Shown here piece by piece: positions 34,601-64,000 of a DNA stretch of 64,000 nucleotides. The DNA is from Heptranchias perlo. Its lineage: Eukaryota. Position numbers and translations under genes: made by a program. Below the pieces are notes generated by a model. It was not told the DNA's origin and searched no databases. It worked only from the letters and a program-made list of their open reading frames with translations. Within the stretch, counting starts at the first letter, position 1. Each line of letters opens with the position of its first letter. The stretch is taken from assembly GCF_035084215.1 (NCBI RefSeq), contig NC_090352.1:9610001-9674000 (forward strand), in the 5' to 3' direction.

Positions 34601-37279
34601 ACTCCACAGGCTTTAGGTGGGTCAGCGGCAGAAGCCCCAAGTGGGGGCATCTCAGCACTTATGCCGAGTTGCACGGCCTCCCCACTCCTGCAGATTTCTG
34701 GGGCCGAAATGTTTTTCAGAGATAGACACCACACGCTGCTATTTTGCACTGGGTAAGAATCCCTCGGCCCCTGCAGGGCTGGCTTTGACTCAGCCCCGTA
34801 ACAGTCTCCCAATTCAAGCATAATCTGACTCTATTCCCGTCTACTGTCATGTCTGTTGTGTGTGTCTTTGGGTTTTATTTTTTAGGTATGTCTCTCATGA
34901 TGCAGCTCGCAAGGGAACTGAAGACTATGGCCAAAGAATTGGGTGTCACTGTAATAGTGAGTACAGGAAACTGTTCCACAGAGAGTTCTGTGATCTGTTT
35001 ATTTATTTTTAAATAAATAGTTGGGCTGAATTTAACAGTACAAAGCATTACAAAGAGCTGTGATTATTTATTATTCTTAGGGTGCAGCGGTGATTTACCA
35101 GAATGAAAACAGGGATGAGGGACTTCAGTTGTCTGGAGAGATTGGAGAAACTGGGGTTGTTCTCCTTAGAACAGAGAAGGTTAAGGGGAGATTTGATAGA
35201 GGTGGTCAAAATCATGAAGGGTTTTGATAGAGTAAATAAGGAGAAACTGTTTTCAAAAGAACCAGAGGTGAGATGAGGAGCAATTGTTTTATGCAGCGAG
35301 TTGTTATGATAAAAATTAAGTCTTGAATTTATATCGTGCCTTTCGTGACCTCAGGATGAACCCAAAGCGCAATACAGTCAATGAAGTACTTTTGAAATGT
35401 AGTTACTGTTGTAATGTAGAAACACGGCATTGCCTGAAATGATGGTGGAAGCAGATTCAAGAGTAACTTTCAAAAGGGAATTGGATATATACTTGAAAAC
35501 TTGAGGTCATGAAAGGCGCTGTATAAATGCAAATCTTTTCTTTCTTTCTTTCCACTCTCGCCCAGTACTTTCCATTAGGAGCCAATGGATAAAAGTCAGG
35601 AGTGTTAGCTGACTTTTTTTTCTCTTCCTCCCCCTCCTCCCCACTCTTCCTAGTTCAGCGGGGGCTTAGATTAATAGGAACACCACATTACCACCTTAGA
35701 GATTACGTAACTCGGCATAAACCAGCACAGATTCTGGGTCTTCCAGTCTGAATGGCTCAGTGTCATTATCTACCCACTGAACCTTTGGCAGAGTTAACTG
35801 TTTAATTGTAAAATGAGCAGTAAAGAATGAACAAAATCCATGGAGAAAGGCGGACCGATTCCATTGACTGTTCTTACTTGTCAGGTGACAAACTGTGTCG
35901 TCCAGGACACCAGCGGAGGGGTGAAGCCAGCTCTGGGGCGCTCGTGGAGTTACGTCCCCAACATCCGCGTCCTCCTCCGGCACAGAACAGTAGGAGCGGG
36001 TTTGCACCCTACGAAGCACACTGCAACGATACTGAAATCATCCCGGCAGGTGGGTGGGCAGTGCCCGCTGTATGGAGACCCACAAGTGGCGTGCGGGTGG
36101 ACCATCCTACCTCCTCTGCCGGCTTCGCACCAATAGCACGGAGGATTGGCCCATAAGACACATTGCACTCTTTCTTTTTCTCTCTCTCCTTCTTATTCTT
36201 TCCCACACTGAGAAACTTTGGAACTCCTCATCGCTCCGTCTTTCCATTTTACAAGGTGGGCAAGTCGCTGATGACTACTGTTTAACTTCCTCCTACTCTT
36301 TCCAATCTGCACCGAGGGCCTTTGCCATTTGCCTCTGCTCCTCAATTTAAACCAAAAAACTGGAAGCAGGAGGAATAGGTGAAGGAAAAGAATCTGCCCT
36401 TGAGGAGCGTTTTCCTCATTGAGTAGTTTCGTGGACAGGAGGTACTTCCCTGGAACTGGTTTGGACACTGCTAACTATCTGTCGTCTTTTGATGGACACG
36501 TTTGTCCTGCAGAAGACACTATGAGATAGAGACTCTGAACCAGGGCTCCTGGTGCAGAGTTGGTGTCCCAAGTTCACCATCTGTACATGGTGCCAACACT
36601 GCAGATTAGTGAGATCTACCTCTGTTTCTATGGTGACAAAACTACCGCCATTTTATCCCTTCCTGTTTTACCCCCGTATAAATTTAATCTGGATGTGGAC
36701 AGACACAGTCATCGCTGTGATGATCACATTGTTACACAGGCTTCAATTTACACGTTTGAGGAGAAATGTCTTGGAGGGCACTCGACTGATACTAGGATGG
36801 CCTTGAGGGGAGGAGCTGACTCTTCTCTCGTACGAGGAGGGGCTTGGGGGAGTGACTCTTCCCTGATCCTAGTGTGAACTGCGGGGAGGGGAACGGTGAC
36901 TGCCTCCCTGATAATAGTATGGATCAGGTATCTTCGCACCATTCTCTTCTCCCCCCCCCCCCCCCCTCCCATTACTAACATGGCCTGGGGGTTACCTCTG
37001 CTCAGTACCTTCCGTCTATCCCTGTAGGGAAGCAGGTACCTCCCAAGGGAGCAGAGTCATGATTGGTAATTCTCCAGGTATATCCCTGCTCCTTGATCCA
37101 CTGCCAATCCCGTCCTCGCGCCTGTCTCAGAACCATTTCAAACCTTGATCTCATTTGTATGTATTTTTTTCCTTCAGCCTACCAGAGTTAGCGTAGAGTT
37201 TGACATCACTTCCTGCGGAACACTGGCCAACCGAGCTGCTTCCTCTCAACACGCTGCTGGTGACCTTGACGACACATAA
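16559..37279 (+). CDS. RAD51D: DNA repair protein RAD51 homolog 4 (RAD51D), complete 10-exon gene, 334 aa; join(16559..16640,23080..23141,25217..25335,27296..27377,29861..29995,30224..30319,32672..32762,34886..34956,35885..36049,37178..37279)
   Basis: Hand-spliced exons give [11 protein letters not shown]...[38 protein letters not shown]...GAPGSGKTQ (Walker A)...VLYIDSTGG...VVVDS (Walker B)...[12 protein letters not shown]. Exon sizes 82/62/119/82/135/96/91/71/165 match the mammalian RAD51D layout as I recall it. All introns are GT-AG with consistent phases. Confidence 0.96.
19333..19546 (+). pseudogene. Harbinger Myb/SANT-like DNA-binding protein, first exon remnant
   Basis: [19 protein letters not shown]..(frameshifts)..[13 protein letters not shown]...[11 protein letters not shown], the Trp/RF pattern of NAIF1/MSANTD-like domains; donor GAA|gtgagt. 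Confidence 0.78.
19966..20558 (-). pseudogene. Harbinger (HARBI1-like) transposase N-terminal remnant, no DDE core visible
   Basis: [20 protein letters not shown]...ICSLL...[33 protein letters not shown] matches the HARBI1-like HTH region; degenerates afterwards. Confidence 0.82.
22358..22657. repeat. Minisatellite, 34-bp unit (TAGTGGGTAATGCAGTGATATCCTCCTGTTCCAT), about 9 copies
   Basis: TCCTGTTCCA at 22381 and 22415. Confidence 0.9.
23080..23141 (+). CDS. RAD51D: RAD51D exon 2 ([21 protein letters not shown])
   Basis: Acceptor tttttcag|, donor AAG|gtaatg; 62 nt. Confidence 0.93.
23520..23730. mobile_element. Short palindromic Penelope-like retroelement insertion with 13-bp TSD
   Basis: About 85-bp inverted arms (23518-23602 / 23609-23693) plus a unique tail; TSD GGACATTAGTGAA at 23507-23519 and 23731-23743; contains a hammerhead core. 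Confidence 0.75.
23604..23640 (+). ncRNA. Minimal type I hammerhead ribozyme motif
   Basis: tcac-CTGACGA-a-GGAGA-taa-TCTCC-GAAA-GC-TT-gtga: core CUGANGA and GAAA, stem II GGAGA/TCTCC, stem I TCAC/GTGA, self-complementary AAGCTT in place of stem III. Confidence 0.65.
24360..25090 (-). mobile_element. LINE 3' fragment, same family as 12298-14070
   Basis: Near-identical to 12310-13060. Confidence 0.88.
25217..25335 (+). CDS. RAD51D: RAD51D exon 3 ([39 protein letters not shown])
   Basis: Acceptor tttacag|, donor AA|gtaggt; 119 nt; not in ORF track. Confidence 0.93.
26440..26640. repeat. Minisatellite, 36-37-bp unit (TATTCCCCATTAACAGGG...), about 5 copies
   Basis: ATTCCCCATTAA at 26463, 26499, 26536, 26572, 26609. 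Confidence 0.85.
27296..27377 (+). CDS. RAD51D: RAD51D exon 4 ([27 protein letters not shown], Walker A)
   Basis: Acceptor ttctgcag|, donor CAG|gtaaga; 82 nt; P-loop. Confidence 0.95.
27776..28305 (+). mobile_element. CR1 LINE 3' fragment
   Basis: [35 protein letters not shown] plus CR1 3'UTR. Confidence 0.85.
29861..29995 (+). CDS. RAD51D: RAD51D exon 5 ([25 protein letters not shown]...)
   Basis: Acceptor gttaaag|, donor CAG|gtaggg; 135 nt. Confidence 0.93.
30224..30319 (+). CDS. RAD51D: RAD51D exon 6 ([32 protein letters not shown])
   Basis: Acceptor tttcacag|, donor CAG|gtagga; 96 nt. Confidence 0.93.
30471..32521. repeat. About 2-kb polypyrimidine/polypurine tract (approx. 21-bp unit CCCCCCTTTCCTTTCCTCCTT) in RAD51D intron 6
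   Basis: Almost pure C/T on +; explains the P/F/S-rich and G/K/R/E-rich pseudo-ORFs. Confidence 0.97.
32672..32762 (+). CDS. RAD51D: RAD51D exon 7 ([30 protein letters not shown], Walker B)
   Basis: Acceptor ttccgcag|, donor AAG|gtgaga; 91 nt. Confidence 0.93.
32990..33460 (+). mobile_element. CR1 LINE 3' fragment
   Basis: [23 protein letters not shown] plus 3'UTR. Confidence 0.83.
33782..34144. mobile_element. Non-autonomous DNA transposon (MITE), hAT-like TIRs TAGGGTTGCCAAC
   Basis: 13-bp perfect TIRs at 33782-33794 and 34132-34144; TSD degraded; related partial copy at about 17175-17250. Confidence 0.7.
34886..34956 (+). CDS. RAD51D: RAD51D exon 8 ([24 protein letters not shown])
   Basis: Acceptor ttttttag|, donor ATA|gtgagt; 71 nt. 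Confidence 0.93.
35885..36049 (+). CDS. RAD51D: RAD51D exon 9 ([28 protein letters not shown]...KSSRQ)
   Basis: Acceptor ttgtcag|, donor CAG|gtgggt; 165 nt. Confidence 0.93.
37178..37279 (+). CDS. RAD51D: RAD51D exon 10 ([14 protein letters not shown]...DDT*)
   Basis: Acceptor tttccttcag|; TAA at 37277-37279. Confidence 0.88.
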   Translation, partial: PTRVSVEFDITSCGTLANRAASSQHAAGDLDDT

Positions 37280-39181: not shown

Positions 39182-42100
39182 TTCCTTCCTCCCCTCTCCC
39201 AATCCTGGCTGGATTGGCCAGGTTAAGGTCAGATCAGGGGGGGTAGGATCATGGCAAGTTCTGGGCTAGAATTTTCCAATTCTGTGCTCATGTTCACCAG
39301 CTTATGATTTGTTGCAGGTTCATTTTAAAGGGCAGAAATTTGCAAGCGGCTGAGTGGAAAATCCCAACCTTGCAATTTGCTTTGTCGCTGATGACAATTC
39401 AGTAAAAACTCTAACAGCGTAACTCCCACTTCCATATCACTAACAGAGCAGCTAAGGTGATCCGGGGGGGGTACTTTTACACCAGTAGCACAGTTGGAAT
39501 GTGACCTTTTTGTGCCCACTTTAGGAAATTCAGGATAAGTCACGAACTGGATTATCTGATCAAAATCAGGCGGGTGCCAATCCCACCTTCTCAGCTGGGT
39601 CCAGGGAAGTCCTGTAACTTGAAGCTACCTCCCATTTTGTTAGGGATAAACAAACGATGCTTCAACAAATTAAGCAAAACAAGGCTGGAACCTTACAAAC
39701 AGATTACTGGTCATCAAAAATTATAGTCTGCTGCAAGCTGCTTTTATTCCTTCTTCCGTTCCACACTGACTCATGATGGTGTACTGCCCTCCAGTATCTT
39801 GCTCAAGTAGCCAAAAACCTTGATAGTGCGTATTTGCAGGTTGTTTGACCATGGAGGATACAATCCCATTCTCCCCCAATATTCACGTGCACTTTCTTGC
39901 AGGGATATCTGGATAGAATGGGAATAGAAACTAGGGCCTTTTGGTGTAGCCCAGAGAATCCACAGGGTGTGATCCCATCAGTTGAGCTGGGATTGTGCCT
40001 GCCATGGAACTTTGCTGCTGACCCCCACTAAAGATTTCCGGGTCATTGTAGGAGCCTCCAAGAGCAGGCCATCGATGGTTTGGTGGCCTCCATCTGCTGA
40101 AAGCCCCAGAACCACTGGCCAGCCTGGGGGGGAGGGGGTACTGGGACCCCTCAACCCCCGAAAGTCATCTTGCTACTCCCGTGACCACCTTACACATGGG
40201 ACTGCTTTCAACAGTGAAAACAAAATTGCAGCCCCCTCCCCCACCCCCCGATCTCAGCCTGGACCCACAATTTGGCCCTGCCTCCACCAGTTATGGTGAG
40301 CTGAAACCAATGGTACCTGTGCCGATATCACACCAATTCCCAACTAAGGGCTGGAGCATAGGCAATCCTGACCGAGGGAGTCCTGGCCCCACCTCTCCCT
40401 TAGATCTATGGCCTCATAGGTGCAGGTGGGGGCGACTCAGCCCCCACAACACAATACCTGAAACTCTAGCCTTATGGCCAGCATACAACGTATCCAGGTA
40501 GTGACCGAGTTTGCAGCCTTTCTGCCAGACACCCGCCAAATTTATAGCAGGAGTCCACCAGAGCGGCGAGCAATTTCAGGGCCGGAGTCTTTATACCCTA
40601 GACCACCCTAGGACTTCATCTCTAACCCAACCAATACAGCAGTCTCTTAACAGGCAGCTTGATCCATGTGGTCTCTGATGTTATTCTTTCGTTAACAGCC
40701 AGGAGGTAAACGAGAGCAGGAATAGGTCCCAGGTTCCCCACCAAGCTCCCTGCATAGATAGCAGTGTCCCTCCTTTGCCCTGGGGAAGAACGTCACGTCG
40801 GCAACTCCCCCAACAACGTGGAGCAGTTCAGAAAGTCCTCCCTCTGTAGGGAGCCACAGGGGTTGGAAGATATTTGATCTGTTCTATCTTGGACATAGAA
40901 AGTGTTTTGTTGAAACTCGCAGTATTTGATGTAGAGAGGATATCAGAAGTCACATAATCACAGCTCCGTCCCACCTCCCCCTGTGTAGATTGATTAATGA
41001 TTAGTATTTTAACAGCAAAACAAACATCAAATAAAACATTCCCGAAAATAACTCGCATTAGATCAGAAAACCTGCCTCCAGCCTGGTCAAACTGCAATCA
41101 TTAACCAACAGGAACTGTATGGAACGGGTCGTATTCTAGAAATCGGAGTTTCGAGTCATTTCTTTCTGCTGATGGCTCTCCAATTAAAAATGGACTTTAG
41201 CTGGGCCAGGCTGCCTGGAATGGATATGGCATTTATTCTTTTAATAACTATGAGAGTCTTGCCTGCTGTGATATGTGGTACAGTGCTTCCTTTCCTAAAT
41301 TATGTGATATATTTATATTAATTATTTATTTAAGTTATTGGTGCAGTTGTTGTACATTTTTCTTATATTTTATGGGTTTTTTCTCATATGGCATTTGCAG
41401 GAGCATACATGATACATCGGGGCTGTTAGCTTGACTGTACCTAATGGGATAGTAATGTTACACTGTTCAGGATTAGGGTCTTTTGTTGGCAGTGATTGGA
41501 GCAGGGAAACTGGGCGGAGGCGTACAGCAGCTACCTAGACTTTTGAGGGCACGTTGGGTTGACTCATTATTCTTATGGTCTGTGCTGTAAGCAGGGTTTC
41601 TTCAGAGTCACGACGGCTCCAAGGTAACACACCTGGTAATGAAAGTTCGGAACCAAGTCAACTCTCCATGTGAATCAGATAGGGCCACAGTACATCAGGG
41701 CACTGCTGGTAATTGAACAGCAAGTCCAGCTCACTAATGGAACCTGGAGGGGTTAGGGGTTGACCTGTCACTGGGGGCAGGGATTCTTCCCATTCAGCTC
41801 TAGATAACCCTGCAAGGCTCCACCATAACAGATAGAGTGATCCTGGCTGGTCAAGCAGTGGAGAGTACACAGTACTCTGTATTGTAAGCTGCATGGTTTT
41901 AGCTGGTTAAATTCCAGCAGTACCCCCTGTGCACACTAAGCCTCGGCTCTGCAAACCTACACCTAAGCTGCCTGGACTTAGTTAAGTGTGGTATGTTCCA
42001 GTGGGAGTGAATGGGCGCTCTTTATTGGGAAAAACAGAAATTCTACAGGTAAACATTTCTCAGTAGCTTGCCTCGGAGACTCTTTAAACATAGCGATGGG

Positions 42101-44647: not shown

Positions 44648-47600
44648 GTGAGCCTCCCTTTGTTAAATTTGTTTTTTCTGTGTCCTTTTTTCAATCACGT
44701 GTCCATCAGACATTAATATAATTTCAAAGGATAAATGAGATACAAATGTTTTCAAAAATAATATTTTAAATATTAACCGTTTGTGATCAATTTTAAAATT
44801 TGGTGTAACAGCTTTTTTTCCCGAGGGAACTGGATAGCACAGTGGGTTTGCACACTCTCCTTTTAACCCTGGGACCTGGATTCAAATCTAACCCTGGCTA
44901 TCAGGGTGAAGATTTCCTCTCTCTGCTACTTGCTACATGACATGAGCTTTGGGAAGTCTTAACCCATTCCATGTTGGTGTGAGCCCACAGTACAAAGCTA
45001 GCACGACAATGGTAATCTCACTGAGACAGGCCACAGATGGTAGGTGTGAGAAACAGAAAATACCACACTGGTACAGTAGGGGTTGGTGCTGAGGCACAGT
45101 GTTGGGCAAAGTAGGAGTTTTACTCCATAGCTCCCCACGTTAAACTTGACCTGGAGTGTTTAATGCTGACACTGAGTACCAAAAATGGGAAAGTGTTTCG
45201 TTCATGAGCACTAACATCACTCATCTTGATGAGCACAATCCTCTGCAAAAAAAAAGTTGTTCTATATTTTATCCTTTTTGAAATCCCAGTCATATTTCTG
45301 CTGGATATTAATAATTCATGGAAACTACTCTGACTTTCCTTGGCATTGCCAAGTATTGGGTAGAAAAAACCCTATTTGTAAGGACTTGTAAGATGAAAGT
45401 AGACAAGGTCCCAGGTTCAATAGCTAATCTTGGTCAAGGTGACAGTTGAGATGATACAATTGGCCTTGGTGTCCTTTGGCCAAGATGTTGAAAAACATCA
45501 GCCAGGGTTCCCTTTCCTGATCATTATCCCGTGGCTTCTTGTAGAAAGTGCAAGTGTGATGACAGTAGGCAAGGACACGATTGGGCTCCCCACACTCACA
45601 AACCTAGCCTCGCACACAAGGAATGGCTATTTGAGAAAAGTACCTGAAACCTGTGGGATCATACTGCAGAGTCAGGAGCGGAGGGGAGAACATTGGAGAG
45701 AGATATATCTACTCATATTGTAGTGGGGGGGGAATACATTCATTGGCAAGGGATCAATATACTCATTGTAGAGGGAATACATTTGATGGAGAGGATGATT
45801 ATACTCATTGTACGGGAGGGAATACATTAATTGGAGGAGGCTAAATGCATTTATTAAAGGAGGGATAAGTACATTCATTGGAGGGGGGTAAATACACATG
45901 GAGGGGGATAAATATATTCATTGAGGGGATAAATACACCCATCTCTAATGTTATGCTCTTTATGTTATACTATAGAAGAACAACTTTGCAGTAATGAAGA
46001 GGTAATTAAAGGAGGAAGGATCGAATGGCCGGAGAATCGAGTAGAAAGAAGTGTGATGACTTACATTTGCCCTGTTGGATTCCGACCCTATCCAGTCAGT
46101 TGGAGATACTGCAACAGAGACAATTATTGGAGTCAACTGCGAAATGTTTATGGTGAAACAGCACTTGAAGCAACATGCAACGGTTCGTCTTTATCTAGAA
46201 TGTTAAACTCCCTTTTCCAGTGATTCGACTCCAATGTTATGGGAAAGTCGATTTTAATTGAGTTAAAAATCAATATATAGTATTCAAAGGGTTATGCAGC
46301 TCTATATTGACTGCATGTTCTTATCAAATCAGTCTTAATATTAAAAAATTGGTTTTGACCTTGGTAAACCAAAAGTAGAAGTTTAAACATTCAACATGAG
46401 TCTTTCCAGTAGATTGCTTTCATTGTGACACATTCCTGGCCCATGAATATTAAGTTGCCCCATTTCTTACCAAATTCCCACAACATTCCCTTCAAAATCA
46501 CCCACTATGGATGTCAGCTGTGCCCAATTACACAGGGGTGTCCAAATTACAGCCCCCAAGACCTAGTCCACAAAGCCCAGGCAACTCAATTCCATGATCA
46601 CTTGTATTTCATACCCGTTTGTCCTGTTTGAAAGTCATGGGCCTGGAAATGTCAATTTTTGCACTGGTGCCTGACTGGTGGATAAATCCTAAATTATAAC
46701 GCCAGCATCTGTTAGTATCAACAACTTGAGTTATATGTAAACCAACGGGAAGAAGGATTTAAATTTTATAAATGGCCTGTACGCACCTGAAGTACGCCCA
46801 AAAAGTCAAAGTGTTTGGAGCCCCCTCCTCCCAGTCCCATTGTGCTTGCATCAATACATCCTTTCTCTCTGTTAGTGTCGCAGAGACAGGTCGATGGCTT
46901 TTAAAATATATTTAGTGATCTCTATCCGCTCAGAAGCATGGCCTGTTTTTAATACAGGTATGTGATGTTATCGTACGAAAGTTTGATACACTTGTACCAA
47001 ATTCATCTGACCACTATTCTAATGGGAACACAGGAACTGGAGTAGGCCACTCAATCCTGTTCTGCCATTCAACCAGATCATGGCTGATCTGTATATTAAC
47101 TCCATCTACTTATCTTGGTTCCATATCCCTTCATACTCTTGCTTAACAAAAATCAATCAATCTCAGTTTTGAAATTTTAAATTGACCCCCAGCCTCAACA
47201 GCTTTTTAGGGGAGAGAGTTCCAGATTTCCACTACCCTTTGTGTGAAGAAGTGCTTCCTGACATCACCCCAGAACGGCCTAGATCTAATTTTAAGGTTGT
47301 GTCCCCCTGTTCTGGACTTCCCCAGTAAATGGGGGCATTAACTCATTTAATTTAATTATCACCAAGAGTAATATTTAGCCTATGATGCGTAGCTCCATTG
47401 CTTTTCCAGATCGTAATGGATCTGTAAGGAAGAAGACCCCATACTTAGTTTGAATTTCTCACACTGTTAGTGTTAGAGAGTATATTATAGAGGCGAGCTT
47501 GGAGAGAATGAGAATTCCAGATGTAAAGCCTTCATTCATAGATTTTATTGTAGGAAAATGATACTCACAGACAACACACATGGCGATGCGACGGATGCAG

Positions 47601-50600
47601 GAGACCTCATGTTACTGTTGCTCAGCTCAAGCTCGGTCTCTACCTAACTCCCATGACGGTAGCTCGCAATTATACCTTCTGTAAAGCCATTATATACACA
47701 CCTGTCCCATGACCCTGCTCCTAGTTACGTTAGGACCCGTTGGCTCAACATTCCAAAGATGCACTGGCTCATTGGGGGTGAAAAGGTTCCACATCACGGT
47801 CTCAGGACATAACATAAATTGTCTTATCTACTTGCATTTACGGAAAAGGGTAAACATATAGGAATCCAAATACATCTTACATGATGGCAGTGGTACCAGC
47901 CTTGCAGGTTTGACTGTCTTATTGACATTCTGCACATACTAACTGTTTCAGCAAATTTCTGAAGACACTGTCTTCTAACTACAAAATGGAGTCTTCAGTT
48001 CAAAATGGAATCCGAATACAACTTTACCTGGCAGAGCTTCTCTCAGAGTCAGACATAGTAACAATAACAACAACATGTGCATTTATATCCCTCCTTTAAC
48101 ATAGGCGCTTCGTAAATACACGTAAGACAATGGGTGGCAAGCCGGGAAAGGAACGATTAGGAAGGAGGACCGAAGACTTGGTCAGAGAGATGGGTCTTGA
48201 GGAGCTCCATCCACAGGCATTGCATACTGGGAAATCCTGGACCCACTGATACGTACGGCCACCCACAAGGCACTCTGTCAGCGCCCATTGACAAAAAAAT
48301 CAACTGCCATTATTTTTATGCTTCTGTTCATAATATGTTTTTACATTTGCTTTCCTCCCATCCTCAGGAACCACTGCTTAGTCCATTGATTCCTTAAAGA
48401 TGGTTACCAGGACTTGGCTGCTTTCATTACCTACTCCCTTTAGTAATCAAACGTTAAGTCTAACTGAATGCCCTCAGTCTGCCTTTGGGACTCAACAGGG
48501 CTCCTAATATTTTGCTAATCATTTGCTTACTATATTTATAAACCTTTCACATTGTGCTTTATATTCCCCACAATCTAAACCCCATTTCCGATTGTACTCC
48601 TGACCAGTTTTTTAATATCATTTACCTTACTCATATTCATTTCTGTCCTTGGTTCTACCTTTAGATCTATACTTGAAGAAAGTTCTTCCCCCCCCCCCCA
48701 TTTCTTTCCTTGTTGCCCACATCAGATCCATCTTCCTCTGCTACACCTCTTCCCCAGTGATATTTAGAGACTCCATATTCTCAGTAATCTGTTCCATTTT
48801 TTCATTTGTATTCCTCCCTTCTAACAATGTGTTCCAGTATAGCCCACTTAGTTCCAGTCTGGCTCTCTTGGTTCCCTCATCTCCTTAAAATTGCCTCCTT
48901 AAAATTGAGAGTCTTTGTTATACTCCTCCCCTTCTCCATTGTAACCCTGACTTCAAACTCACCCATATCATGATTGCTATTTCTAAGGTGCTCTCTAACT
49001 ATAACCTTCTCCACCATCCCTGGTTGTTCCATAGTATCAGGATTAGTATTACCCTGCAGTATTACCCCCCTCCCACCCCTGAGTAGGTTCTTTAACCATT
49101 GTATTGTGCCCTATAACACGTTTTTGTTCTTTTAGTCCCATGTTAGATGTCGCAATATATCCCTGGTTAGTTGAAGTCTTCCATGACAATTTCAGGCAAT
49201 CGCTCAGATGCTTCCCTCCTGACCCGGAGGCCTGTAACAGATCCCAATAGTTACATTTTTTTCCTTTTAATATCACGTACTTTGATTCACACTGTTTCCA
49301 CTTTATCTGCTCCTGAGCCATATTTCTCAATCTCTTTCACATAAAAGCCATCCTCTTCCAGTGTATCCTTGCTATTCCTCTGGATCAATTTATATTATTG
49401 TATTCCCCCCCCCCAACCGTGTATGTAATTATTTAGCCATGTCTTCATGCCTCTGCCTGTGCAGTTTTCATTAGTGTACACCTTCCGTTCTCTGATTTTG
49501 TTTTTAAGTCTCCTGGTGTTGGTGAACAGAATTTGGAGACATCAATTAATCCCCCGCCACCCACCTCAATCTGACCTACTCCATTATTTTATTGTCATTT
49601 CCTCATCTGGTGATGTCCTTAGCCTTTGTACTTGAACTGCTGTCTACCATCCCCTCCACTGTTCCATAACATCTGGCCTCTGTATCTTTTCTAGCTCCAT
49701 CTTTCTTTACTTCCCTTTATTTTTGGTTTGCTCTGTTTGCTCATACCCTTTACCCCATTACTCTGTTCCCACTGCCCTACCTGCTCTTTTGGGAAGGACA
49801 CTGGTACCAGTCGGGCTCTGGTGAAGAACATCCAGCCTGAACAGTTTCCTCCTCCTAGAAATGACTCGGAAACCTTCCCTTCTATACAATCTACTCGGGC
49901 CGCAACTTGCTACTGCATTTGTTTCTCCCTAACCAGGTACATTGTGTAGCACTAGCAGTAATCCGGAGATTACCATCCTCAACCTCTTATACGATAATCT
50001 AGTCCCTAACTCGTTAAGCTTACCCTGCAAGACCTCCATCCTACTCCTCCCGTGTTGGTTCCTATGTGAACCATGAGTCCAGACTGGCCTACACAAGGGG
50101 TCTTTCCCTCAGCTCCATTGCGTCCCTTAACCCTGGGAGACAACATATCATTTGATACTTGGATTGAAGCTGCAAATCAGGCGCCTGCCCCTTAAATGTG
50201 GGCTCCTCCCCCACCATCACCTGGTCTCACGCATAGGCTTACTGTCACCCCCTGCAGGAAACAGTATGGGCTCACATGGAATTAATCTTAACCCTCTCCT
50301 GAACTGTAATTGCAGAAATGACTTGCCTCGCACCAAAACATTTTGAATTTGGATCGTTTGCCCCTGTTGAGAACACCTACAAAGTTAAAGCTTCAGTCAC
50401 ATTTCAGTGTTTTGATGGATACCAGCTGATTGGTTCAGCTACGAGGACCTGCTTGGCAAATGGCCATTGGAGTGGGACGTTGCCAAGATGTAACTCTGAA
50501 GGTATTTATTTGGTTTTTACTTCTTTTACACTGCTCACGAGAACAACAATCTTTTCAAATGCAGATAGGATGGTCTAGTAAGAATAATAGATCAGAATTT

Positions 50601-53600
50601 AGATTTGTTTCTAAGGATTTTACACATAGGAACAGGAGTAGGCCATTCAGCCCCTCGAGCCTGTTCCGCCATTCTTGGCTGATCTGCATCTTAACTCCAT
50701 CTGTCTGCCTTGGTTCCGTAACCCTTAATACCCTTGCCTAACAAAAATCTAACGATCTCAATTTTGAAACACCTACAAAGCATGATCCTTAACTTGAGTT
50801 GTCTGACATAATCTGACTCAATTACAAGGAGACATTTAACTTACTGTCTGGGCTCACTCCAAAGGTACCAAGGACTGAACAGGGCACAGTTCTATGTAAA
50901 GTGATAACTACTTTATTGCATTACGTTATCTAGTCAATGATAGGACGACTGTTAGCTTAGTCATCACAAACAGAACGTGTAATGCAGTATAGCTCCATTC
51001 AGATTACAATATCACACCCTTAGCTGAGTTCAACTTATTATAGCAGGTTGACCCCATTCAATTCTAAAGAGTACAATATGTGCTTGGCAAATTTAACCCT
51101 TTTAGTTTATATAACAAAAAAAAGACTTGCATATATATGGGGCCTTATCACATATCTCAGGAACATCCCAAAGTGCATTACATAGAATGAATTACGTTAT
51201 GCACCTACTGCTGTTATGTGGGTAAACAAATGAGAAAAAAAATGTATTTATATAATGCCTTTCACTTCCTCAGCACATCCCAAAGAGCTTCACAGACAAT
51301 GAAGAACATTTGAAGTGTAGTCAGTGTTGTAACATTAGGAAAACACAGCAGCTAATTTGCACACAGCAAGGTCCCAAAAACAGCAATGAGATAAATGACC
51401 AGATAATTTGTTTTCTCGTAGTGTTTATTGAGGGGTAAGTGTTAGCCTGGATATCAGACTAACTCCCCTGCCGTTCTTCGACTAGAGCCATGGAATTTTT
51501 AATGGCCACCTGAGAGGGCAGATGGGTACTCAGTTTAACTGATGGGGACTCATCTGAAAGACGGCACCTCCAACAGTGCAGCACTCCCTCAGTACTGCAC
51601 TAAGGTGTCAGCCTAGATTTTGTGCTCAAGTCTCTGGAGTGGGACTTGAACCTACAACCTTTTGACTCAGACGAGTGTGCTACCATTGAGCCACAACTGA
51701 CTCTAGGAGACTTGAGCACATATTCCAGGCTGACACTCCTGATGCAAATTGCTAAACTGCTTTATTTCACAGCAACTGAACATACAGAACAACAGTTATG
51801 ATTGGACTCATAGATACAACTTATCTTTCATGTAATAATATGAATTCTGTAAACAGTGTGTTCGATTGTGTTTGAACTCTGTTCAGAGAATAGTCCAATT
51901 GCCGTGACAATTGTATTGTATAACAGTGTGTAATAAGTGTGTATTTAGCATAAGTTAGAAGAAGACAAACCAGGAAAGGCGGCAACTTCATGGAGACTTA
52001 AATCAACAAACTGCAGAGGAAGAAGGAATCACTTCAATATAGCAGTTAATTCATCTTTTGGCTATGTTCAGCAGCCTTTCATCTTCAAATTTCTCCTTAC
52101 TTCTGTTGGTTAAGATGAATATGGACAATTCCAAGAGTAGGGAAAGAGAATAAGAAGAATGTAGGATGAATGGTAGGAGACTACATGATACAACACAGAG
52201 GGGAGAGCTGGTGAATAGCTCAGTGAAATCATCAGTGCAATTGACAGCAGCAGTAAAGAAGGCAAACAAGATCTTGGGGTGTAGAGCCTGTATATGCCTG
52301 GGGTAAAATAGCAAGCTTGTACAGATCACTGGTTAAACTTGAATTCCTGTCACTATAGCATGGTGGAGACTTCCTGACTTTCAGGAGGATACACAGGAAT
52401 TAGGCACCTGAGGTATGAGGAGAGACCTTGGACACCATGAAGGTTTACACAGTAGAATAGCAGGCGGAATAGAATGGAATAGAAAACTTAAGGAAGTTTT
52501 CAAGATTCAAAGGGATGTGGATAAATTGTTTAATGTAAATTGGGGGCACAGAGTGACCGCAGAAGAGGGAAGGTGAACAGACAGTTTAGACTTAACTACT
52601 TCACACAGAGGTTGGTGAATAAGTGGAACAGGCTGTCCAGGGAGCCGGTAAAGGCAGATCGTGTTAGCAGATTCAGAGTGAACTGGATAGGCTTTTCGTG
52701 AATGAGGGGCATTAGGGATAGAGTATGCGATGGGATTTTTTAAACCTTGCAATTGACCAGATGGGTCGCAATGTCCTAATCCTTCCCATGGACATTCCTG
52801 TGTTCCCAAATAACTGTGGCATTGGGTTACGTTCCATTCCTACACTCTGGGACCTGGAATCAAGTCCATCCAGATGGAGTTTTACCTGCTGGCTGTAAGG
52901 ATCTGAGGTGAAATGAGTTTGAGAAGTCTAAACCCAGTTCCTAATGGGCACAGACCCATATTAGTAAATGCACTGTCATAATTTGGCACAAATTGATAAC
53001 AAATTAACAGTTGCACTGAGGGAAACCCCAATGAAAGCTGCATTTGGAACTGAATGTCAGGGATGGTACTCTTTTGATACTGGACTATGATATGTGCCTC
53101 AAAGGTGTAGAGGGAGCTTTACTCTGCATCTGCATGAGATGTACTTTACCTGACCTAGCAATCCACGATGCAGATACTGAAAGTCAAAGGTGGAAAAGTA
53201 TTCCAGTTCTCATGCGGACACCTTCATTCTGTGTCTTTAAATGCGATGCCTTTAACAGGGAGGATCGACAGGATGATGTAGTATTAGTTCAAGATTAAAA
53301 TCATAATCTGGGTCCCTGTCCTATTTTCATTAGAAGGTCTCTATATTCAACATGATTTTATTTTCTCCATTTAGACACATTCTGCCCCAACCCTGGAATC
53401 CCTTTTGGTGCAAGAAAAGAAGGGAAGTATTATGATGTCTTTTCAACTGTCCAATACCACTGTGACAAACACATTTTACGGGGTTCATCAAAACGCACAT
53501 GCTTGGAAACCGGCCAGTGGTCTGGAGTGGAGCCTCGATGCGAAAGTAAACCTTTTTATATCTCGCTATTTTTTCTAAATCTTTTATCATAACTAGCAGA

Positions 53601-56600: not shown

Positions 56601-59600
56601 TCTACCAACAGAAGATAACACAGGTACTGTTAATCACAGGTGTTGACTAACTGTCTTGTGTAGTAAAAGTTATGATGTGGAGATGCCGGTGATGGACTGG
56701 GGTTGACAATTGTAAACAATTTTACAACACCAAGTTATAGTCCAGCAATTTTATTTTAAAATAAAATTGCTGGACTATAACTTGGTGTTGTAAAATTGTT
56801 TACAATAGTAAAAGTTAAACAGCTCATGTTAGAAAAATAGCAGTTATTATTTTAAATCTGAAACATGCTTGAAATAAAACTTTGAGAATTCAATCTCTGG
56901 TTTGCTTCAAAGTCTTTTGGAGTGTGAAAAGGAAACCTGGAAAGCTGAGGCTGCCACACAACCTATTATATTAATAAGCAGTTACTGCAAAACACAGACT
57001 ATTCAACAGCACAAGCAATCTCTCCCCATGCGGCTGTAACATGCTACATTTCGTTGTTGAATAGGCAAATACTCTTTTGATAACGTGGAGGACCTGGCAA
57101 AAGAATTGGATGTCTTGGAGTCAACAGTTCGCAATCCAGGTAAGATTGATGCATATCTGATTTTCATTATTATTATTATTATTATTATCCTGTGGTGTTG
57201 CTCATGGGTAGGTTGGGATCTGGAGCATGGTTGTGATGTTTTGTTGCTAACCTGGCCTGTACCTTTTAAGGCTACTGGTCAGCACTTCCTGAGGTGGACT
57301 GATTTAAATACACATGTCCTGAGGCCTATTAGAAACTAGTTGCTGTTGGACTTTTCTCTAGATTTGAAGCTGTTTGGCTTCCATCCTTGGGGAGAGGTCA
57401 GGTTAAGTAAAGATCAGAAAAAAAAACAGCAGCAAATGCCTGGCTTTCTTTTTGTTTTTGGATACTTTATGTTCAAAAGTTGTTCAGTTGTGATTTGTTG
57501 GTGTTTTACACAAAGTGTAACATATGAAGTGTGATAGGCTCATACCACAACCTTTATGCACATATATTACAAGTATCTAGTTGATTTTGCAACAGAAATA
57601 CCACATTGCCAATAGTACAGAAAGTAGGTAATTGGTACATATAGAGACATATCTGGTTTCTTTAGTCCTTCAATGCCAAGCATGAGGAGAAACCACTTAA
57701 AGGGAAAACAATAGGACATCAGTGCCAGAGTGTTCTGTCTGTTTACATATAACTGAGGGGCATTTGTCAATCAGTCCAGGTCAATTGATGAATGTGGAGG
57801 TCCCTGCACCCCATCACCCTCCTAAATGCCCACAGGGACTACGCACTGCCCAAACCCAGTGTCCAATAGGACTCCTGACTCAACCATCTACAGAAATAAT
57901 GACCGTGACCCTGTCAGTGAGTCACAACACCCAAGCCGACCAACTGAGGGGCATATTTCTGCAAGTATCACATCATGTGTTATGCAGCAGGAGAAAGTAT
58001 ACCCAGTCACATGATTTCTCAGGATTGGGTGGTTGCAGGTCAGCTGACAGGCAGCCCCCATACATTCAGTGGAGTTACTCCATGACACCTGCCCATCAGT
58101 GATTTCACAGTGCAGTCTAAGACAGTGGAAGAACCCAAATCTGTTGGATTTCTGTACAGATCAAAATTTCAACCGATATTATGATAAGAGTGTATTATTG
58201 TCAGTATAAAATGGAAAGGGCTGTGAGCAACAAGCACAGGCGCTTTCCCTAGACTTTCCTTCCTGTTTAATGTTCCCTGCAGTGCGGGCGGTATGACCAG
58301 ATTATACTGCTGTCTTCAGTCAGTCTGACTACACGTGCTTATGTTTCCTCAGACCTTAATTCTAGAACAGAAGTCAACCCAGGTCAGAAAAGAGGGGTCA
58401 ATGTCTTCTTTGTCATCGATGCCTCAAGAAGGGTTGGAAACGAAAACTTCATCAAGTCTTTAAACTTTGTTAAAACCTTTATTAACAGGGTAAGTGTGAT
58501 TGTTAGAACTGTCAAATTATCCCAGTTCCACAAGTTCATTCTCAAGTGTCAAAGAGTCAGCACTAAGGTGATCAGGAGTAGGAACGAGTTACAACAGACT
58601 GGTACAAAAGGAAGAATGTACTGCATACATTATTAATGGCCTGGTCTTCGGTTTATTCCTTCGGTGGGTCATTTTAATATTTTAAATATATTTCAAAACA
58701 TGACCCTTAACAGAACTGTAAGTTACAGATTTGGAGTTTAATTGAGGGATTCAGGTCATTTATATACAAAACAATGGATATTTATATTTTTGTAATAGCT
58801 TTGTAACAGAAAGAATTCATGACCACTTGGTTTTGACACTTGAAACTGTGCTATACGGACACTTTAAGATGTTTCTGCTAATATTACATAGTGCATCTTC
58901 AACTAACTTGTATAGATCTGAGAACGCTAGTCAAAGTGTTTGAGCTTTCCCTGAAATAGGGGATAGCTGGGAATGAGTCACAGGCTGGAATCTAATCGAG
59001 AGGATCAGATTGTTTGTATCTAGAATAATATTATCTGAAGGGGAGAATAAGAGAGAGAGTCAGCTTGGGCTGCTCTTTTGCAATTCCTAATGGTCAGTTA
59101 CAGAGTGGCTTTGGTCGGGGCCTGGGTCCAGTGTCCCAGCATTGAGGTGACCACCTGTCCAATTCCAAAACGAACAATCCACTTTTTGGGCTGTCTGAAA
59201 ATTTCTAATATGTAAACAAGGCACCAACATTTTGTTTCATTTTTAAAACAAGGACCTATTTTTTTCACTTAATTCTGTATCTCATAATATGCAGACATTA
59301 TCTACTAAGCTTTGCAATGATCTTTCATCAGTGAAGGAATCCTGACAACTCAACTCCCAGGATTATTACCCCGCTCTGCTCTCCTTGTCTTTGGTTTTTG
59401 AATTTGGCAGAAGCTGGGAACCCTACTGGACCAAGAAGGGTCTACTTCCTTTGCCTCACTGTGCTTTTCCCACCTTTATTCATGTAGTCACCGTTATACT
59501 AACATTGCACGTGTGTCATTTTGGCACTGTTGGTCACACTCTCACCTCAGAGTCAGAAGGCTGTGGGTTGAAGCCCCCACTAAGGACTTAAGCACTGAGT

Positions 59601-61290
59601 CTAGGCTGCCATTTCAGTGCAATACTGAGGGAGTGCTGCATCATCAGATAAAAGGTTAAACTGGGTCCTGTTTGAAGAAGAACTGGGAGGTCTACCAGTG
59701 ATCAACACTGATATCTCAATCTATGCTATCTATTGCTATTTTGCCGTATACAAAATGGCTGCTGTATTTGCCTACTTAACAAAAGTAACTGCACTTCAAA
59801 GTATGTGGAACTCTGAGAATAGATGAGATATTCTATAATTGGAATTCTTTCTCTTACATATGTATGAAAATTGAAAGCACATACAAAGGGCAAATTATAT
59901 TGGGAACATGATACAATATTTGATTTGAGAGATCCTGTTTCCTGCTGTCCCTTAGGTGTCAGATGTTAATGGTCTGGTCCGATTTGAAGTTGTCGCATTT
60001 GGATCATATTCCATAATGATCACAGACATCAAGGAAAACCTTACTCCTAAGGCTGTGATAGAAAGAATCAAACGTGTTGATTATAGAGGTAAGTTGGACA
60101 AGCCCATTGTAGTTGGGACAAAAAACAGAAGGTGGAAATACACAGCACATTAGTCAGCATCTGTGAAGGGAAAAGTCAGGTCATGACGCTTTGGGTGTGT
60201 ACCCTTCATCGGAACTGAACACCGAGAGATCAGCAGGAATTTTAGTACAGTTGGAAAAGAGAGAGAAAAAGGGGGGGAGGTGGGGGAAGAGGGTGAGAGA
60301 ACCAACAAATATACCAATCACAGCATAAATGTGTTAAATGGCCTGCAGACTGCTTAATAGTAACACTTGGATGATAAAAAAGATCATCAGTGAGATAACG
60401 CAGATGTGTAGACAGGACAAAAGAACGTGTCGAGTGGGTGTAAAAGACACGGGTGAGAAATAGAGGAAAAAATACTGCAGATGCATCAGACATAAAATTA
60501 AAGCAGAAAATGCAAGTGAAATAAGGTTGATCCACTGATTGCAAGAGAAAAAGAATGGATGCACGTCCTGGGTTCCATCCCTGCTCGCCCTGTGCTCTGA
60601 CACAGGGTCTCCCTTTAACAAAAGCAAAGTCAGCAAAATCCAAACGAGTGTCAGGCAGATCCCCTTTCCTGGGCAACTTTAGGCGTCACCTTTTGTATTG
60701 GTTTATCTGGAAATTCCCAGAAAATTCTGATATATTTCTAACTTTTCTCCAACTATCTGGTCACTGCTCTGCAGTTGCCTCATTTCTGTAGCTGCTACAA
60801 AAGTCTGGATTATTAAAGGCCCAACTGTGCCCCGTTGGTGTGCGTGGCAAATAACTAGTGGTTAGAGCCAGTTCAGACTACAATGATTTCTTCTTTTTTT
60901 GTCAATTTGTGCCCTGTTCCACATGGACACTGATATTTTGTTTCAGTCTGCTGTCGGTGATTAAAAGAAAGGGGGCTCTCTTTGTCTTCATTTTATTTTA
61001 TACCCCTTGCTTTTGGGCATGTGTCTCCAATGAAGGAGCAGTTTTGGAGAATAAGATGAACGAGATGAGAATTCAAACAATAAACATGGATGAGTGTCTC
61101 CATCAGTTTAATGATTACTTTTTTGTTGTTGCAAATTTTCCTTCATCCGTTGAAGAATATTACAACAACACGGGAAGAAGAACGGGAATAGCTCTGGAGC
61201 TAGTCCACTCCTCCATCAACGAAACTGTAAAACTTCAGATCGAAAATGGACAACCTGTCCCAAAGCAGGTCATCATTATAATCACTGGTG
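44582..61290 (+). CDS. Complement factor B/C2-like protein, 5' part (signal?-CCP1-CCP2-CCP3-linker-VWA); join(44582..44647?,45976..46182,50316..50501,53375..53545,57065..57139,58353..58489,59956..60088,61156..61290); continues beyond window
   Basis: Three phase-1 symmetric sushi exons with C-C-W-C pattern ([12 protein letters not shown] is typical of Bf/C2 CCP3), a linker exon, then VWA exons ([24 protein letters not shown]). Exon order and phases are those of the Bf/C2 family. Bf versus C2 orthology cannot be assigned by eye. Confidence 0.9.
45700..45935. repeat. Degenerate approx. 21-bp tandem repeat (ATACATTCATTGGAGGGGG) upstream of the CCP1 exon
   Basis: Repeated ATAC(T/A)TCATTG + G-run. 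Confidence 0.65.
45976..46182 (+). CDS. Bf/C2-like CCP1 exon ([14 protein letters not shown]...[17 protein letters not shown]...W...ATCN)
   Basis: Acceptor ctatag|, donor G|gttcgt; 207 nt; sushi Cys/Trp pattern. Confidence 0.87.
48500..50160 (-). mobile_element. Ancient CR1 5' remnant (ORF1 esterase-like + endonuclease)
   Basis: Minus strand reads VHIGTN and VISGLL (CR1 ORF1 SGNH-like) near 49950-50075, and SNHDM (SDH-like) near 48965. Confidence 0.55.
50316..50501 (+). CDS. Bf/C2-like CCP2 exon ([12 protein letters not shown]...[33 protein letters not shown])
   Basis: Acceptor ttgcag|, donor G|gtattt; 186 nt. Confidence 0.92.
51240..51700 (-). mobile_element. tRNA-derived SINE, same family as 5402-5868
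   Basis: Colinear similarity to 5402-5868. Confidence 0.75.
52130..52810 (+). mobile_element. Old CR1 LINE fragment
   Basis: Degenerate [24 protein letters not shown] motifs. Confidence 0.6.
53375..53545 (+). CDS. Bf/C2-like CCP3 exon ([56 protein letters not shown])
   Basis: Acceptor ccatttag|, donor A|gtaaac; 171 nt; absent from the ORF track, read by hand. Confidence 0.92.
55315..56330 (-). mobile_element. CR1 LINE RT/3' fragment
   Basis: [35 protein letters not shown]. Confidence 0.85.
56672..56805. mobile_element. Second copy of the palindromic Penelope-like element (opposite orientation, centre deleted), 11-12-bp TSD
   Basis: ATGATGTGGAGATGCCGGTGATGGACTGGGG is the reverse complement of the 23700-23730 tail; perfect 98-bp palindrome 56709-56806; TSD TAGTAAAAGTT(A) at 56661 and 56806. 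Confidence 0.75.
57065..57139 (+). CDS. Bf/C2-like linker exon ([24 protein letters not shown])
   Basis: Acceptor gaatag|, donor CAG|gtaaga; 75 nt; YSFD-x-x-E-D-L-A resembles the Bf/C2 alphaL linker. Confidence 0.82.
58353..58489 (+). CDS. Bf/C2-like VWA exon a ([45 protein letters not shown])
   Basis: Acceptor tttcctcag|, donor AGG|gtaagt; 137 nt. Confidence 0.92.
59956..60088 (+). CDS. Bf/C2-like VWA exon b ([19 protein letters not shown]...[11 protein letters not shown])
   Basis: Acceptor cccttag|, donor G|gtaagt; 133 nt; phase 0 to 1. Confidence 0.88.
61156..61290 (+). CDS. Bf/C2-like VWA exon c ([21 protein letters not shown]...KQVIIIITG)
   Basis: Acceptor gttgaag|, donor G|gtgagt; 135 nt; aligns with the Bf GTNT..AL...HVIILMTDG exon. 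Confidence 0.87.
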
Positions 61291-62579
61291 GTGAGTCTCT
61301 GAGGGGACGGGTGTGTTTTAATAAGCACTTGTATATAGGGCAGGAAATGGGATTGGGTTGGTGGGATTGGGCCGAATAGGGGTGGGATCATGGCCTTCTT
61401 TGCTGCTGATGAAAATTCATGAAATACGTTCAATAACTGATGACCTCTCTGCCCTTCATGAGACAGATGAGCATATTAGACAAACAGCCTTTCATTTAAA
61501 ATAAAAAGTTTAGCATCCGGTTTACCTCTTAAAGTTCTGGACAATTTGCACATGGGTCTGTTCATTCACATTAGTTGGGAGGTGGGGGGGGGGGGGAGGT
61601 GGGTGTGTATATTTCCTAATGTGTATGGGTATCCCCTATTGCCAGCTGGTGTGTGTTCTCTCACATCAACTGGTGCTTTTACATTTTGTGTGTTCCCTTA
61701 TGCCAGTCACTGTGTATGTGTTTGGGTTGTGTGCATCTGTACACACAAGTGTGTCCCCTCATGTAACGTTCTCAGCTGAATGTTATAATATATTTATAAA
61801 ACACATTTCAAATCAAAACATCTCAAAGTACTTCACAACAGATGACTGTTTTTGGAGCACAGTGACTGTTTTATGTAGGCAGAAATGGCAGCAACATCCC
61901 ATGCACAGCCAAACACGAGATGAATGAGTTAATCTGTTTTTGGTGGTGTTGACCAGGACACCTGAAAACTCCCCTCTCTTCATTGATCTTTCACATTCAC
62001 TTTGAACCAATGGAACAGAGTTAACCGGGGTGAAATTCGTCCTGGGCGATAGTGCATCAGCGGTCCTTCTGACACTCCGCCAGTGTGTCAGCCAATGTTT
62101 CATCGGAAAGACGACACCTCCTGAGGGAATGCAGCATTCCCTCAGTACTGCACTGCAGCCTCAATTTATGCATTCAAGGGGTGGGGCTCAATTGCAGAAC
62201 CTCCTGATGCAAAGGTGAGAGTGCTACTGACTAAGTATCATCATAGTGTACTCAAGTCAATTCCAAATGATCGCCATTGCCAAGTACTCACTGATCACTG
62301 GCTGTCATCTTACGCTTTTCAGATGAGACATTAAACAGAGGCCCTGTCTGCCCTCTCAGGTGGACGTAAAAGATCCCATGGCACTATTTTGAAGAGGAGC
62401 AGGGGAGTTCTTCCTAGTGTCCTGGCCAATATTTATTCCTCAACCAATGTCATTAAAACAGATTATCTGGTCATTTATTTCATTGCTGTTTGTGAGGGTT
62501 TGCTGTTGTGTACTTCCTTGGTTCTCAAGCGCTTTGGGATATCCTGATAAAATGCAAGTCTTTTCATTTATTCCTGTTC

Positions 62580-63570
62580 TTTCACAGTTGTTTTCCGTTC
62601 AGCTGTCTCTGATACTTCCCCACCTCCTCCTTGCCCACCACGCCCAGGCCTCCCCTAAGCTTCCCACACCCACTCTAGCCCTGCACCTCTGGCTCTTTCC
62701 ACTTTCTCTCCCATCTCCCTCCACGTCTTCTCTGAGTTCATCTTGTCCGAAACCCACCTCTTGCTCCCTTGACCCCATTCCCACTAACCTGCTGACCACC
62801 TACCTTCCCTTCCTGGCCCCCATATTGGCTGACATTGTAAACGTTTCCTTCTCCTCAGGTACTGTCCCTCTCCCGGTCAAAAGCATCATCATCACCCCCC
62901 ATCTCCTCAAAAAAAAAAATCCTCGACCCCTCTATCCTTGCAAACTACCACCTCAGCTCCAACCTCCCTTTCCTCTATCCCCGCCCACCCCCCACCCCCA
63001 CCCCCACCCCAGCCACTGTCTCAGGCTGAACCAGACCGTTTGCGACCTCAGCATCCTATTCAACCCTGAGCTGAGCTTCTGACCCCCTATCCTCTCCATC
63101 ACAAAGACTATCTACTTCCAGCTCCGTAACATCGCTCGTCTCCACCCCTGCCTCAGCCTGTCTGCTGCTAAAACCCTCAGTCATGCCTTTGTTATCTCCA
63201 GACTTGACAATTCCAATGCTTTGCTGGCTGGCCTCCCATCCACCACTCTCTAAACTTCAATTCATCCCGACCCTATTTGTGTTACCTCCTCCAGCCCTAC
63301 AGACACCCCCCTCCCCTCCATTCCTCTGACTCTAGCATCTTGTACACTTCCCCTCCCTTCACTTCACCATGAGCAGCTGTTCCTTCAGCTGTCTAGCCAC
63401 CTGATATGGAATTTCCTCCCTAAACCCCCCCTCCCTTCCCACCCTCTGCCTCCACATCCCTCTCCTCAAGACCCTCCTTAAAAACCCATCTCTGACTAAG
63501 CTTTTGGTCATCCCTTTTGATATTGTCTGATTACACCTCTGAGAAGCACTTTGGGATGTTTTTTCTATGT
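62580..63570 (+). mobile_element. L2-like LINE remnant
   Basis: PTSCSLDPIPT, LADIVN.SFSSGTVP, LFNPELSF, FQLRNIARL, HAFVISRLD. Confidence 0.75.
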
Positions 63571-63574
63571 TAAA

Positions 63575-64000
63575 GAACATAAGAAATAGGAGCAGGAGTA
63601 GGCCATACAGCCCCTCAAGCCTACTGCGCCATTCAATCAGATCATGGCTGATCTTCGACTTCAACTCCACTTTCCCGCCCTATCCCCATATCCTTTCGTT
63701 CCATAGAGTCCAAAAATCTATCACATTCAACGACTCAGCATGCACAGCCCTCTGGGGAAGAGAATTCCAATGATTCACAACTCTCTGAGTGAAGAAATTC
63801 CTCCTCATTTCACTCTTGAATGGTCGACCCCTTATCCTGCGACTAGTTCCCCTAGTTCTAGACTCTCCAGCCAGGGGAAACAACTTCTCAGCATCTACCC
63901 TGTCAAGCTCCCTCAGAATCTTGTATGTTTCAATGAGATCAGCTCTCATTCTTCTAAATTCCAGAGAGTATAGGCCCATTCTACTCAATCTCTTCTCATA
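63575..64000 (-). mobile_element. CR1 LINE 3' fragment (runs off window)
   Basis: LYSLEFRRMRADLIETYK, FFTQRVVNHWNSLP plus 3'UTR. Confidence 0.85.

Follow-up and report, generated by a model that had tools for sequence, protein, structure and literature searches.

A factor B/C2-family gene of Heptranchias perlo with an incomplete metal site and a predicted trypsin-type protease: an apparently unrecognised lineage

Complement factor B (Bf) and C2 are built from three CCP (complement control protein) domains, a linker, a von Willebrand factor A (VWA) domain and a serine protease. In human factor B, D251, S253, S255, T328 and D364 of the MIDAS (metal ion-dependent adhesion site) hold the Mg2+ that binds the C-terminus of C3b (C4b in the case of C2). 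The numbering S255/T328/D364 follows the initial annotation of the DNA described here and is that of the mature human protein. This DNA, the window, is a stretch of 64,000 nucleotides of Heptranchias perlo (G000:C31:9610001-9674000); it holds the first eight exons of a gene whose product, P0001, is a database protein with the automatic name 'complement factor B-like'. The gene is neither Bf nor C2. It belongs to a lineage of elasmobranchs, gar, bichir and amphibians in which the MIDAS is incomplete and the protease domain is of the ancestral trypsin type, as in Bf of invertebrates and, for the most part, of lamprey, but unlike that of jawed-vertebrate Bf/C2.

In Bf and C2, CCP2 and CCP3 provide a large contact with C3b or C4b, and the bond between the MIDAS Mg2+ and the C-terminal carboxylate holds the enzyme in place after release of the CCPs (PMC12847986). 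The MIDAS ligands of C2 are named in bioRxiv 10.1101/2025.08.09.669456, which also describes how human Bb engages C3 with a long loop that follows Gly216. Reviews trace Bf and C2 of jawed vertebrates to the duplication of a single ancestral Bf (PMC6015906, PMC10751288). For agnathans, PMC6015906 gives one lamprey Bf and no factor D, and PMC4714745 lists lamprey FB-1 and FB-2 and calls the assembly of invertebrate convertases unclear; both state the activation of Bf in animals without factor D as an open question. Two C2/CFB genes are counted in gar (PMC7768046).

The relationships were inferred with IQ-TREE from 54 hand-chosen full-length Bf-type proteins (one per cluster) over 695 columns; proteins with many repeats, read-throughs of C2-CFB and several canonical rows from frogs and teleosts were left out. 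The window gene falls in a clade of 19 proteins (support 100/99) from 13 elasmobranchs, gar, bichir, axolotl, newt, Discoglossus and Bombina. Its sister clade of seven (100/99) comprises two sharks, a turtle, three caecilians and tarpon. A separate clade holds canonical Bf/C2 (100/100), with cyclostome Bf weakly beside it (90/76). Approximately unbiased (AU) topology tests on 26 of the tree rows reject a union of the window gene's lineage with canonical Bf/C2 (p-AU 6e-5) and weakly reject a single gnathostome-only clade (p-AU 0.033), but do not reject cyclostome Bf joined to the trypsin-type lineages (p-AU 0.16). The phylogeny that the initial annotation had called for thus sets the gene apart from both Bf and C2. 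By clade membership and topology tests, it is at least as old as the split between sharks and bony fishes, and possibly older. Among the matches listed, no mammal, bird or teleost belongs to this dead-MIDAS lineage. Two salamander orthologs (P0015, P0019) are extended at the N-terminus by a long stretch, about 200 residues rich in Ser/Thr, that precedes CCP1.

Comparison with shark canonical Bf reveals equal intron phases at 17/17 introns and positions within one column at 15/17, including all seven protease introns. The lineage is also one group in separate CCP, VWA and protease trees (FastTree support values, perhaps displaced by rerooting, are not quoted for support). The protease domain was therefore inherited, and the common introns and per-domain trees rule out a swapped-in trypsin domain. 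The same genome harbors two tandem canonical genes (C42:2.23-2.31 Mb); in each, all three motifs of the MIDAS are present, as is RDFH, the motif with Asp226. A Ski2_N match lies 42 kb from this pair (C42:2.353 Mb); in human, SKIV2L adjoins C2-CFB in the class III region. CCP matches at C29:18.35 Mb belong to a many-CCP gene and not to Bf. A genome search for class I of the major histocompatibility complex (MHC) gave 42 matches, all on small unplaced scaffolds and none on C31, which carries the window gene, or on C42; the MHC is not placed. One scaffold, C1080, holds an MHC class I match and an NTR-domain match together, and the NTR-domain search of the genome found no usable intact C3 chain.

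Three VWA codons, AGG, AGA and GGT, had drawn the attention of the initial annotation, and re-reading of the sequence, HMMER alignment and the DNA contigs of sequencing run X3 agree with it. DASRR, GRRT and ITGG align with DGSDS, GTNT and MTDG of human factor B, with R275, R346 and G383 at the third, fourth and fifth ligand positions; two of the five ligands are kept. The MIDAS is complete in 20/20 canonical Bf/C2 and 3/3 cyclostome Bf, in 2/7 members of the sister lineage, and in 0/19 of the window gene's lineage. Such a distribution is not due to chance, and the trait marks an entire ancient lineage and is no peculiarity of sharks. D364 is replaced in 13/13 elasmobranchs (by G, T, A, N, S or H) and T328 is Arg in all 13; S255 is Arg in only three. 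Conservation of DASRR, GRRT and TGG across elasmobranchs, a point left to be checked by the initial annotation, thus holds for the Arg at T328 and the loss of Asp but fails for the Arg at S255. The six bony members have no Arg in the S255 or T328 column, and their D364 column is non-Asp in four and a gap in two. The VWA domain very probably binds no Mg2+. With an intact gene (see below) and an incomplete MIDAS throughout the lineage, there is support for the earlier view of a working paralog that is probably unable to form a Mg-dependent convertase of the classical kind. Two tunicate Bf-like proteins, P0203 and P0227 (Clavelina, Styela), also combine a degenerate MIDAS with a trypsin-type protease, possibly through independent loss.

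The same columns bear on the proposal that two Arg substitute for the cation, a guanidinium replacing Mg2+ to grip the C-terminal carboxylate of C3b or C4b. R346 is fixed in 13/13 elasmobranchs, D271 is acidic in all of them, and the three caecilians of the sister lineage also have Arg in the T328 column; however, S255R occurs in 3/13, and 0/6 bony members have Arg at the Thr column. Moreover, Asp-x-Ser-x-Arg is not special to complement, since it is found in the VWA domain of collagen VI alpha-2. Of the two, only T328R is fixed in elasmobranchs, and the proposal of two Arg is weak. A grip of R346 on the carboxylate is possible in elasmobranchs only, and cation replacement by Arg would be an improbable, if compatible, addition to the explanation favoured below.

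Despite the MIDAS loss, the VWA domain is under constraint. Identity to 12 elasmobranch orthologs is 55-77% in the VWA, 59-81% in the CCPs and 61-76% in the protease (59-76% overall), and VWA conservation for one species pair is 68% in this lineage against 70% in canonical Bf. The AlphaFold model (predicted local distance difference test, pLDDT, 84; predicted template modelling score, pTM, 0.78) has a normal VWA pattern, and its best structural matches in a Foldseek search are factor B and C2. Template modelling (TM) scores are 0.60-0.63 to open C3b-bound factor B and C4b2 and 0.44-0.45 to free factor B; they are not used because AlphaFold domain packing is unreliable.

The protease domain opens with R482-IFGG and carries His57, Asp102, Asp189, Asp194, Ser195, Gly216, Gly226 and Cys1/Cys122 (chymotrypsin numbering, by alignment and recall); the residues identified in this region are C469, R482-I483, H523, D573, C593, D686, S692 and G724. 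P1 Arg, Ile/Val16, Gly19, His57, Asp102, Asp189, Cys1 and Cys122 occur in 19/19 lineage members, and Asp194, Ser195, Gly216 and Gly226 in 17/19; the other two rows are gaps in X2 isoforms, and the X1 isoforms of both proteins carry the Ser195 and Gly226 motifs. The ray X2 isoforms (P0012, P0014), without the Ser195 exons and C-terminal strands, may represent genuine splice variants without activity or errors of annotation. In canonical Bf/C2, P1 Arg and Asp189 are each found in 0/20 and Asp226 in 19/20 (one gap), whereas the trypsin-type activation motif and Asp189 recur in cyclostome Bf and five invertebrate Bf rows. The Pfam Trypsin profile starts at position 1 on I483 in the window gene and at position 9 in canonical shark Bf, and the activation exon has its closest matches in matriptase, TMPRSS6, MASP-2, hepsin and C1r, with weak E-values of 0.01-0.2. 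In 2001, Terado reportedly dated the specialisation of the protease to the emergence of jawed vertebrates.

All marks of a classical S1A zymogen are present in the sequence (Arg-Ile-x-x-Gly, triad, S1 pocket, Asp194, Cys1-Cys122), the model has a flexible loop (474-482) ahead of I483, and Asp189 points to trypsin-like specificity by the rule given in PMC7914634. The product is thus quite likely an active trypsin-type zymogen. The initial annotation had left the His/Asp/Ser triad and the S1 pocket to be checked downstream; both are complete and trypsin-type, which speaks against its suggestion of a decoy, if a catalytically dead one is meant. A non-catalytic decoy or competitor of Bf/C2 would agree with the dead MIDAS and the preserved CCPs, but throughout the lineage the triad, the S1 pocket and the activation motif do not vary, and this explanation is very unlikely.

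The linker has changed as well. The Arg of the Ba/Bb column is found in 19/20 canonical proteins (one Lys) and 3/3 cyclostome Bf, in 3/19 members of the window gene's lineage, where it is never followed by Lys-Ile/Leu, and in 0/6 of the sister lineage, whose linkers have the scissile loop deleted and are 12-13 residues shorter than those of cyclostomes. A dead MIDAS accompanied by a trypsin-type protease and a lost Ba-releasing Arg, which the initial annotation could not see, points to a different route of activation.

Addition of 120 kb of downstream DNA resolves the gene as 18 exons with a coding sequence of 2241 nt, that is, P0001 (746 aa) and a stop; all 17 introns are GT-AG. The seven CCP/linker/VWA exons are open, AG/GT-bounded and compatible in phase, as had been reported; exon 1 (41172-41277) had been missed and exons 9-18 lie past the window. 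At the three MIDAS codons no letter differs in the DNA contigs of run X3, which span all of them; spliced contigs of run X5 span AGG and GGT, likewise without a difference. The X5 contigs join exon 2 to exon 3 and exons 4, 5 and 6 to one another, and one of 1377 nt overlaps exon 8 from 61185. The four sequencing runs stem from one sample, possibly the source of the assembly itself, so their agreement with it is not independent; X5 is presumed to be RNA. Exon pieces among the matches listed come only from X5 of the three presumed RNA runs, with none from X6 or X7. Independent support for the codon changes comes from the orthologs, which share T328R and the loss of D364. The gene is intact and is spliced in one probable RNA run.

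A decaying pseudogene or an assembly error would fit the nearly species-specific S255R and the decayed partial copy of exon 9 that adjoins the gene. Against this, the 18 exons have no stop or frameshift, splice sites are intact, spliced contigs exist in X5, orthologs persist in 12 elasmobranchs at the identities given above, and run contigs bear out the codons, so that both possibilities can be dismissed for practical purposes. The partial copy lies about 270 bp past the real exon (L004:2279-2341), with an acceptor and 76% amino acid identity over 21 codons.

The preferred explanation, to which we assign a probability of roughly one half, is a Mg2+- and factor D-independent trypsin-type zymogen with a CCP-VWA targeting chain. 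The factor B/C2-family protein, which is likely secreted, would be activated as a classical zymogen by a single cut at R482-I483. By trypsin-family rules, the new N-terminus Ile483 would pair with Asp691 (Asp194) and the CCP-VWA chain would stay attached through C469-C593. The activated form would be an Arg-specific protease that requires neither Mg2+ nor factor D, and CCP2-3, still attached, could, judging from Bf/C2 structures, go on tethering it to a thioester protein. With the CCPs retained, the MIDAS contact would become dispensable, which would explain its decay. The substrate is most likely C3, C4, C5 or their b-fragments, the least certain step. A role in complement is somewhat favoured by ancestry, by the retention of three CCPs and the linker helix, and by the identity of CCP2/CCP3 to mammalian factor B (41/47%, compared to 24% for the VWA). 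A further arm of complement in sharks, rays, gar, bichir and amphibians, in which a single-cut paralog never sheds its CCPs and acts as a re-associating Mg2+- and factor D-independent C3/C5 convertase, is a more tentative extension.

Several observations weigh against this explanation. CCP conservation is partly generic: without C/G/W/P, the identity of CCP2/CCP3 to factor B falls to 30/33%, compared to 43/38% between factor B and C2. The loop that contacts C3 after Gly216 is short, although equally so in lamprey Bf. An Arg in the flexible linker loop is retained in Heptranchias perlo, Heterodontus and Cetorhinus, so CCP release may be possible in these three species. From 26 VWA positions near-invariant in Bf/C2, 13 are kept in at least 11/13 elasmobranchs and seven are lost in all 13; the divergence thus exceeds the metal site, and the domain may have a new partner. 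Finally, the sister shark paralog keeps a full MIDAS although the scissile loop is missing from its lineage (the assembly does not include the linker of this paralog itself), and loss of Ba release therefore does not force loss of the MIDAS.

The same kind of zymogen may instead work outside complement, with CCPs and VWA targeting the coagulation or contact system, the matrix or reproductive fluid. The gene lies away from the Bf/C2-SKIV2L locus, the MIDAS and other canonical VWA positions are lost, the C3-contacting loop is short, and the canonical pair in the same genome could serve both convertases. However, three CCPs, the linker helix and the 18-exon plan have all been kept for more than 400 million years, and CCP2-3 remain the part closest to factor B and C2. 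This reading is possible but less likely than a complement role.

The sister paralog of Heptranchias perlo, P0021, is trypsin-type with a full MIDAS and the motif R-VFGG. It occurs in two near-identical copies on unplaced contigs (G000:C200:12707-51661 and G000:C1788:2112-74910), which may be haplotypes or a duplication; the contig edge truncates both at the 5' end. In this paralog the MIDAS is complete in the two shark members and degenerate in 5/7.

Table 1. Exons and MIDAS codons of the gene (window positions unless a contig is given).
Feature	Position	Strand	Basis or remark
Exon 1: ATG and predicted signal peptide (aa 1-35)	41172..41277	+	Exact match to P0001 aa 1-35, GT donor; signal peptide suggested by hydrophobic stretch
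Exon 2: CCP1	45976..46182	+	Spliced to exon 3 in run X5 contig (record 9)
Exon 3: CCP2	50316..50501	+	Open frame, AG/GT, in phase
Exon 4: CCP3	53375..53545	+	Spliced to exons 5 and 6 in run X5 contig (record 12)
Exon 5: linker helix alpha-L	57065..57139	+	Helix 231-246 in AlphaFold model
Exon 6: former scissile loop (R253, not conserved) and VWA strand A with DASRR	58353..58489	+	Loop 250-259 of low confidence in model
AGG = R275, third MIDAS position (S255), lineage-variable	58430..58432	+	Arg in 3/13 elasmobranchs
Exon 7: VWA	59956..60088	+	Open frame, in phase
Exon 8: VWA with GRRT and ITG(G)	61156..61290	+	HMMER alignment to human factor B
AGA = R346, MIDAS Thr position (T328)	61176..61178	+	Arg in 13/13 elasmobranchs, 0/6 bony members
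GGT = G383, last MIDAS Asp position (D364)	61287..61289	+	Asp in 0/13 elasmobranchs
Intron 8	61291..64000 (window end)	+	Continues past window
Exons 9-18: rest of VWA and trypsin-type protease	G000:C31:9675933-9700595 (beyond window)	+	Coding sequence match to P0001

The gene lies between RAD51D upstream and two intronless G protein-coupled receptor frames downstream. RAD51D exons occupy 29800-35000 of the window, one of which (29861-29998) is confirmed against PDB. A 2-kb pyrimidine-rich simple repeat at about 30450-32600 yields long spurious open frames. The receptor frames are of the rhodopsin family, in tandem on the same strand, 12 and 21 kb past the gene (L007:8674-9648, L008:7746-8735).

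The lineage is undescribed in the full texts covered by a literature search, with subscription journals, the main outlet for shark complement work, mostly outside that coverage; it is apparently an unrecognised branch of the Bf/C2 family, and 'undescribed' is provisional. Its proteins are already in RefSeq under automatic names. Two further ancient paralogs with an invertebrate-style protease are masked by labels like 'factor B-like', 'C2' and 'C3/C5 convertase', and three kinds of protein may be pooled when genes are counted or expression is studied in these animals. EDTA-resistant complement activity in their plasma is worth looking for, and the protein of axolotl, gar or catshark makes factor D-free activation testable. 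If true, the convertase proposal would provide a living model of Bf before factor D, perhaps predating the lamprey-gnathostome split.

Jawed-vertebrate Bf/C2 (human PDB 2ok5, 2xwj and 9qj4; shark MHC-type P0221 and P0100) share with the window gene the domain order CCP x3 - linker - VWA - serine protease, the fold, 18 exons, the triad and the insertion after PVCLPC (598-627), with about 25-30% identity in VWA and protease. Unlike them, the window gene has an incomplete MIDAS and no conserved Ba/Bb Arg, is not at the SKIV2L locus and falls in a separate clade; it carries R-IFGG, GWG, Asp189 and Gly226, whereas Bf/C2 have no activation motif and have Asp226. Lamprey and hagfish Bf (P0025, P0340 = BAA02763, P0178) and amphioxus and hemichordate Bf (P0212, P0217) also have R/K-[IV]xxG and Asp189, but with a full MIDAS and the Ba/Bb Arg, and cyclostome Bf leans to canonical Bf/C2 in the tree and not to the window gene's lineage. 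The sister paralog (P0021, P0193; turtle P0166; caecilians P0020, P0022, P0027; tarpon P0179) is likewise trypsin-type and only machine-named, with a linker of 33 residues compared to 41-46. To C1r, C1s, the MASPs and factor I (PMC6092519), the likeness would consist of the Arg-Ile cut, disulfide-linked chains and CCP exosites. In contrast to these proteases, the window gene has no CUB/EGF or LDLR modules, and its exon structure and position in the tree argue for descent from Bf.

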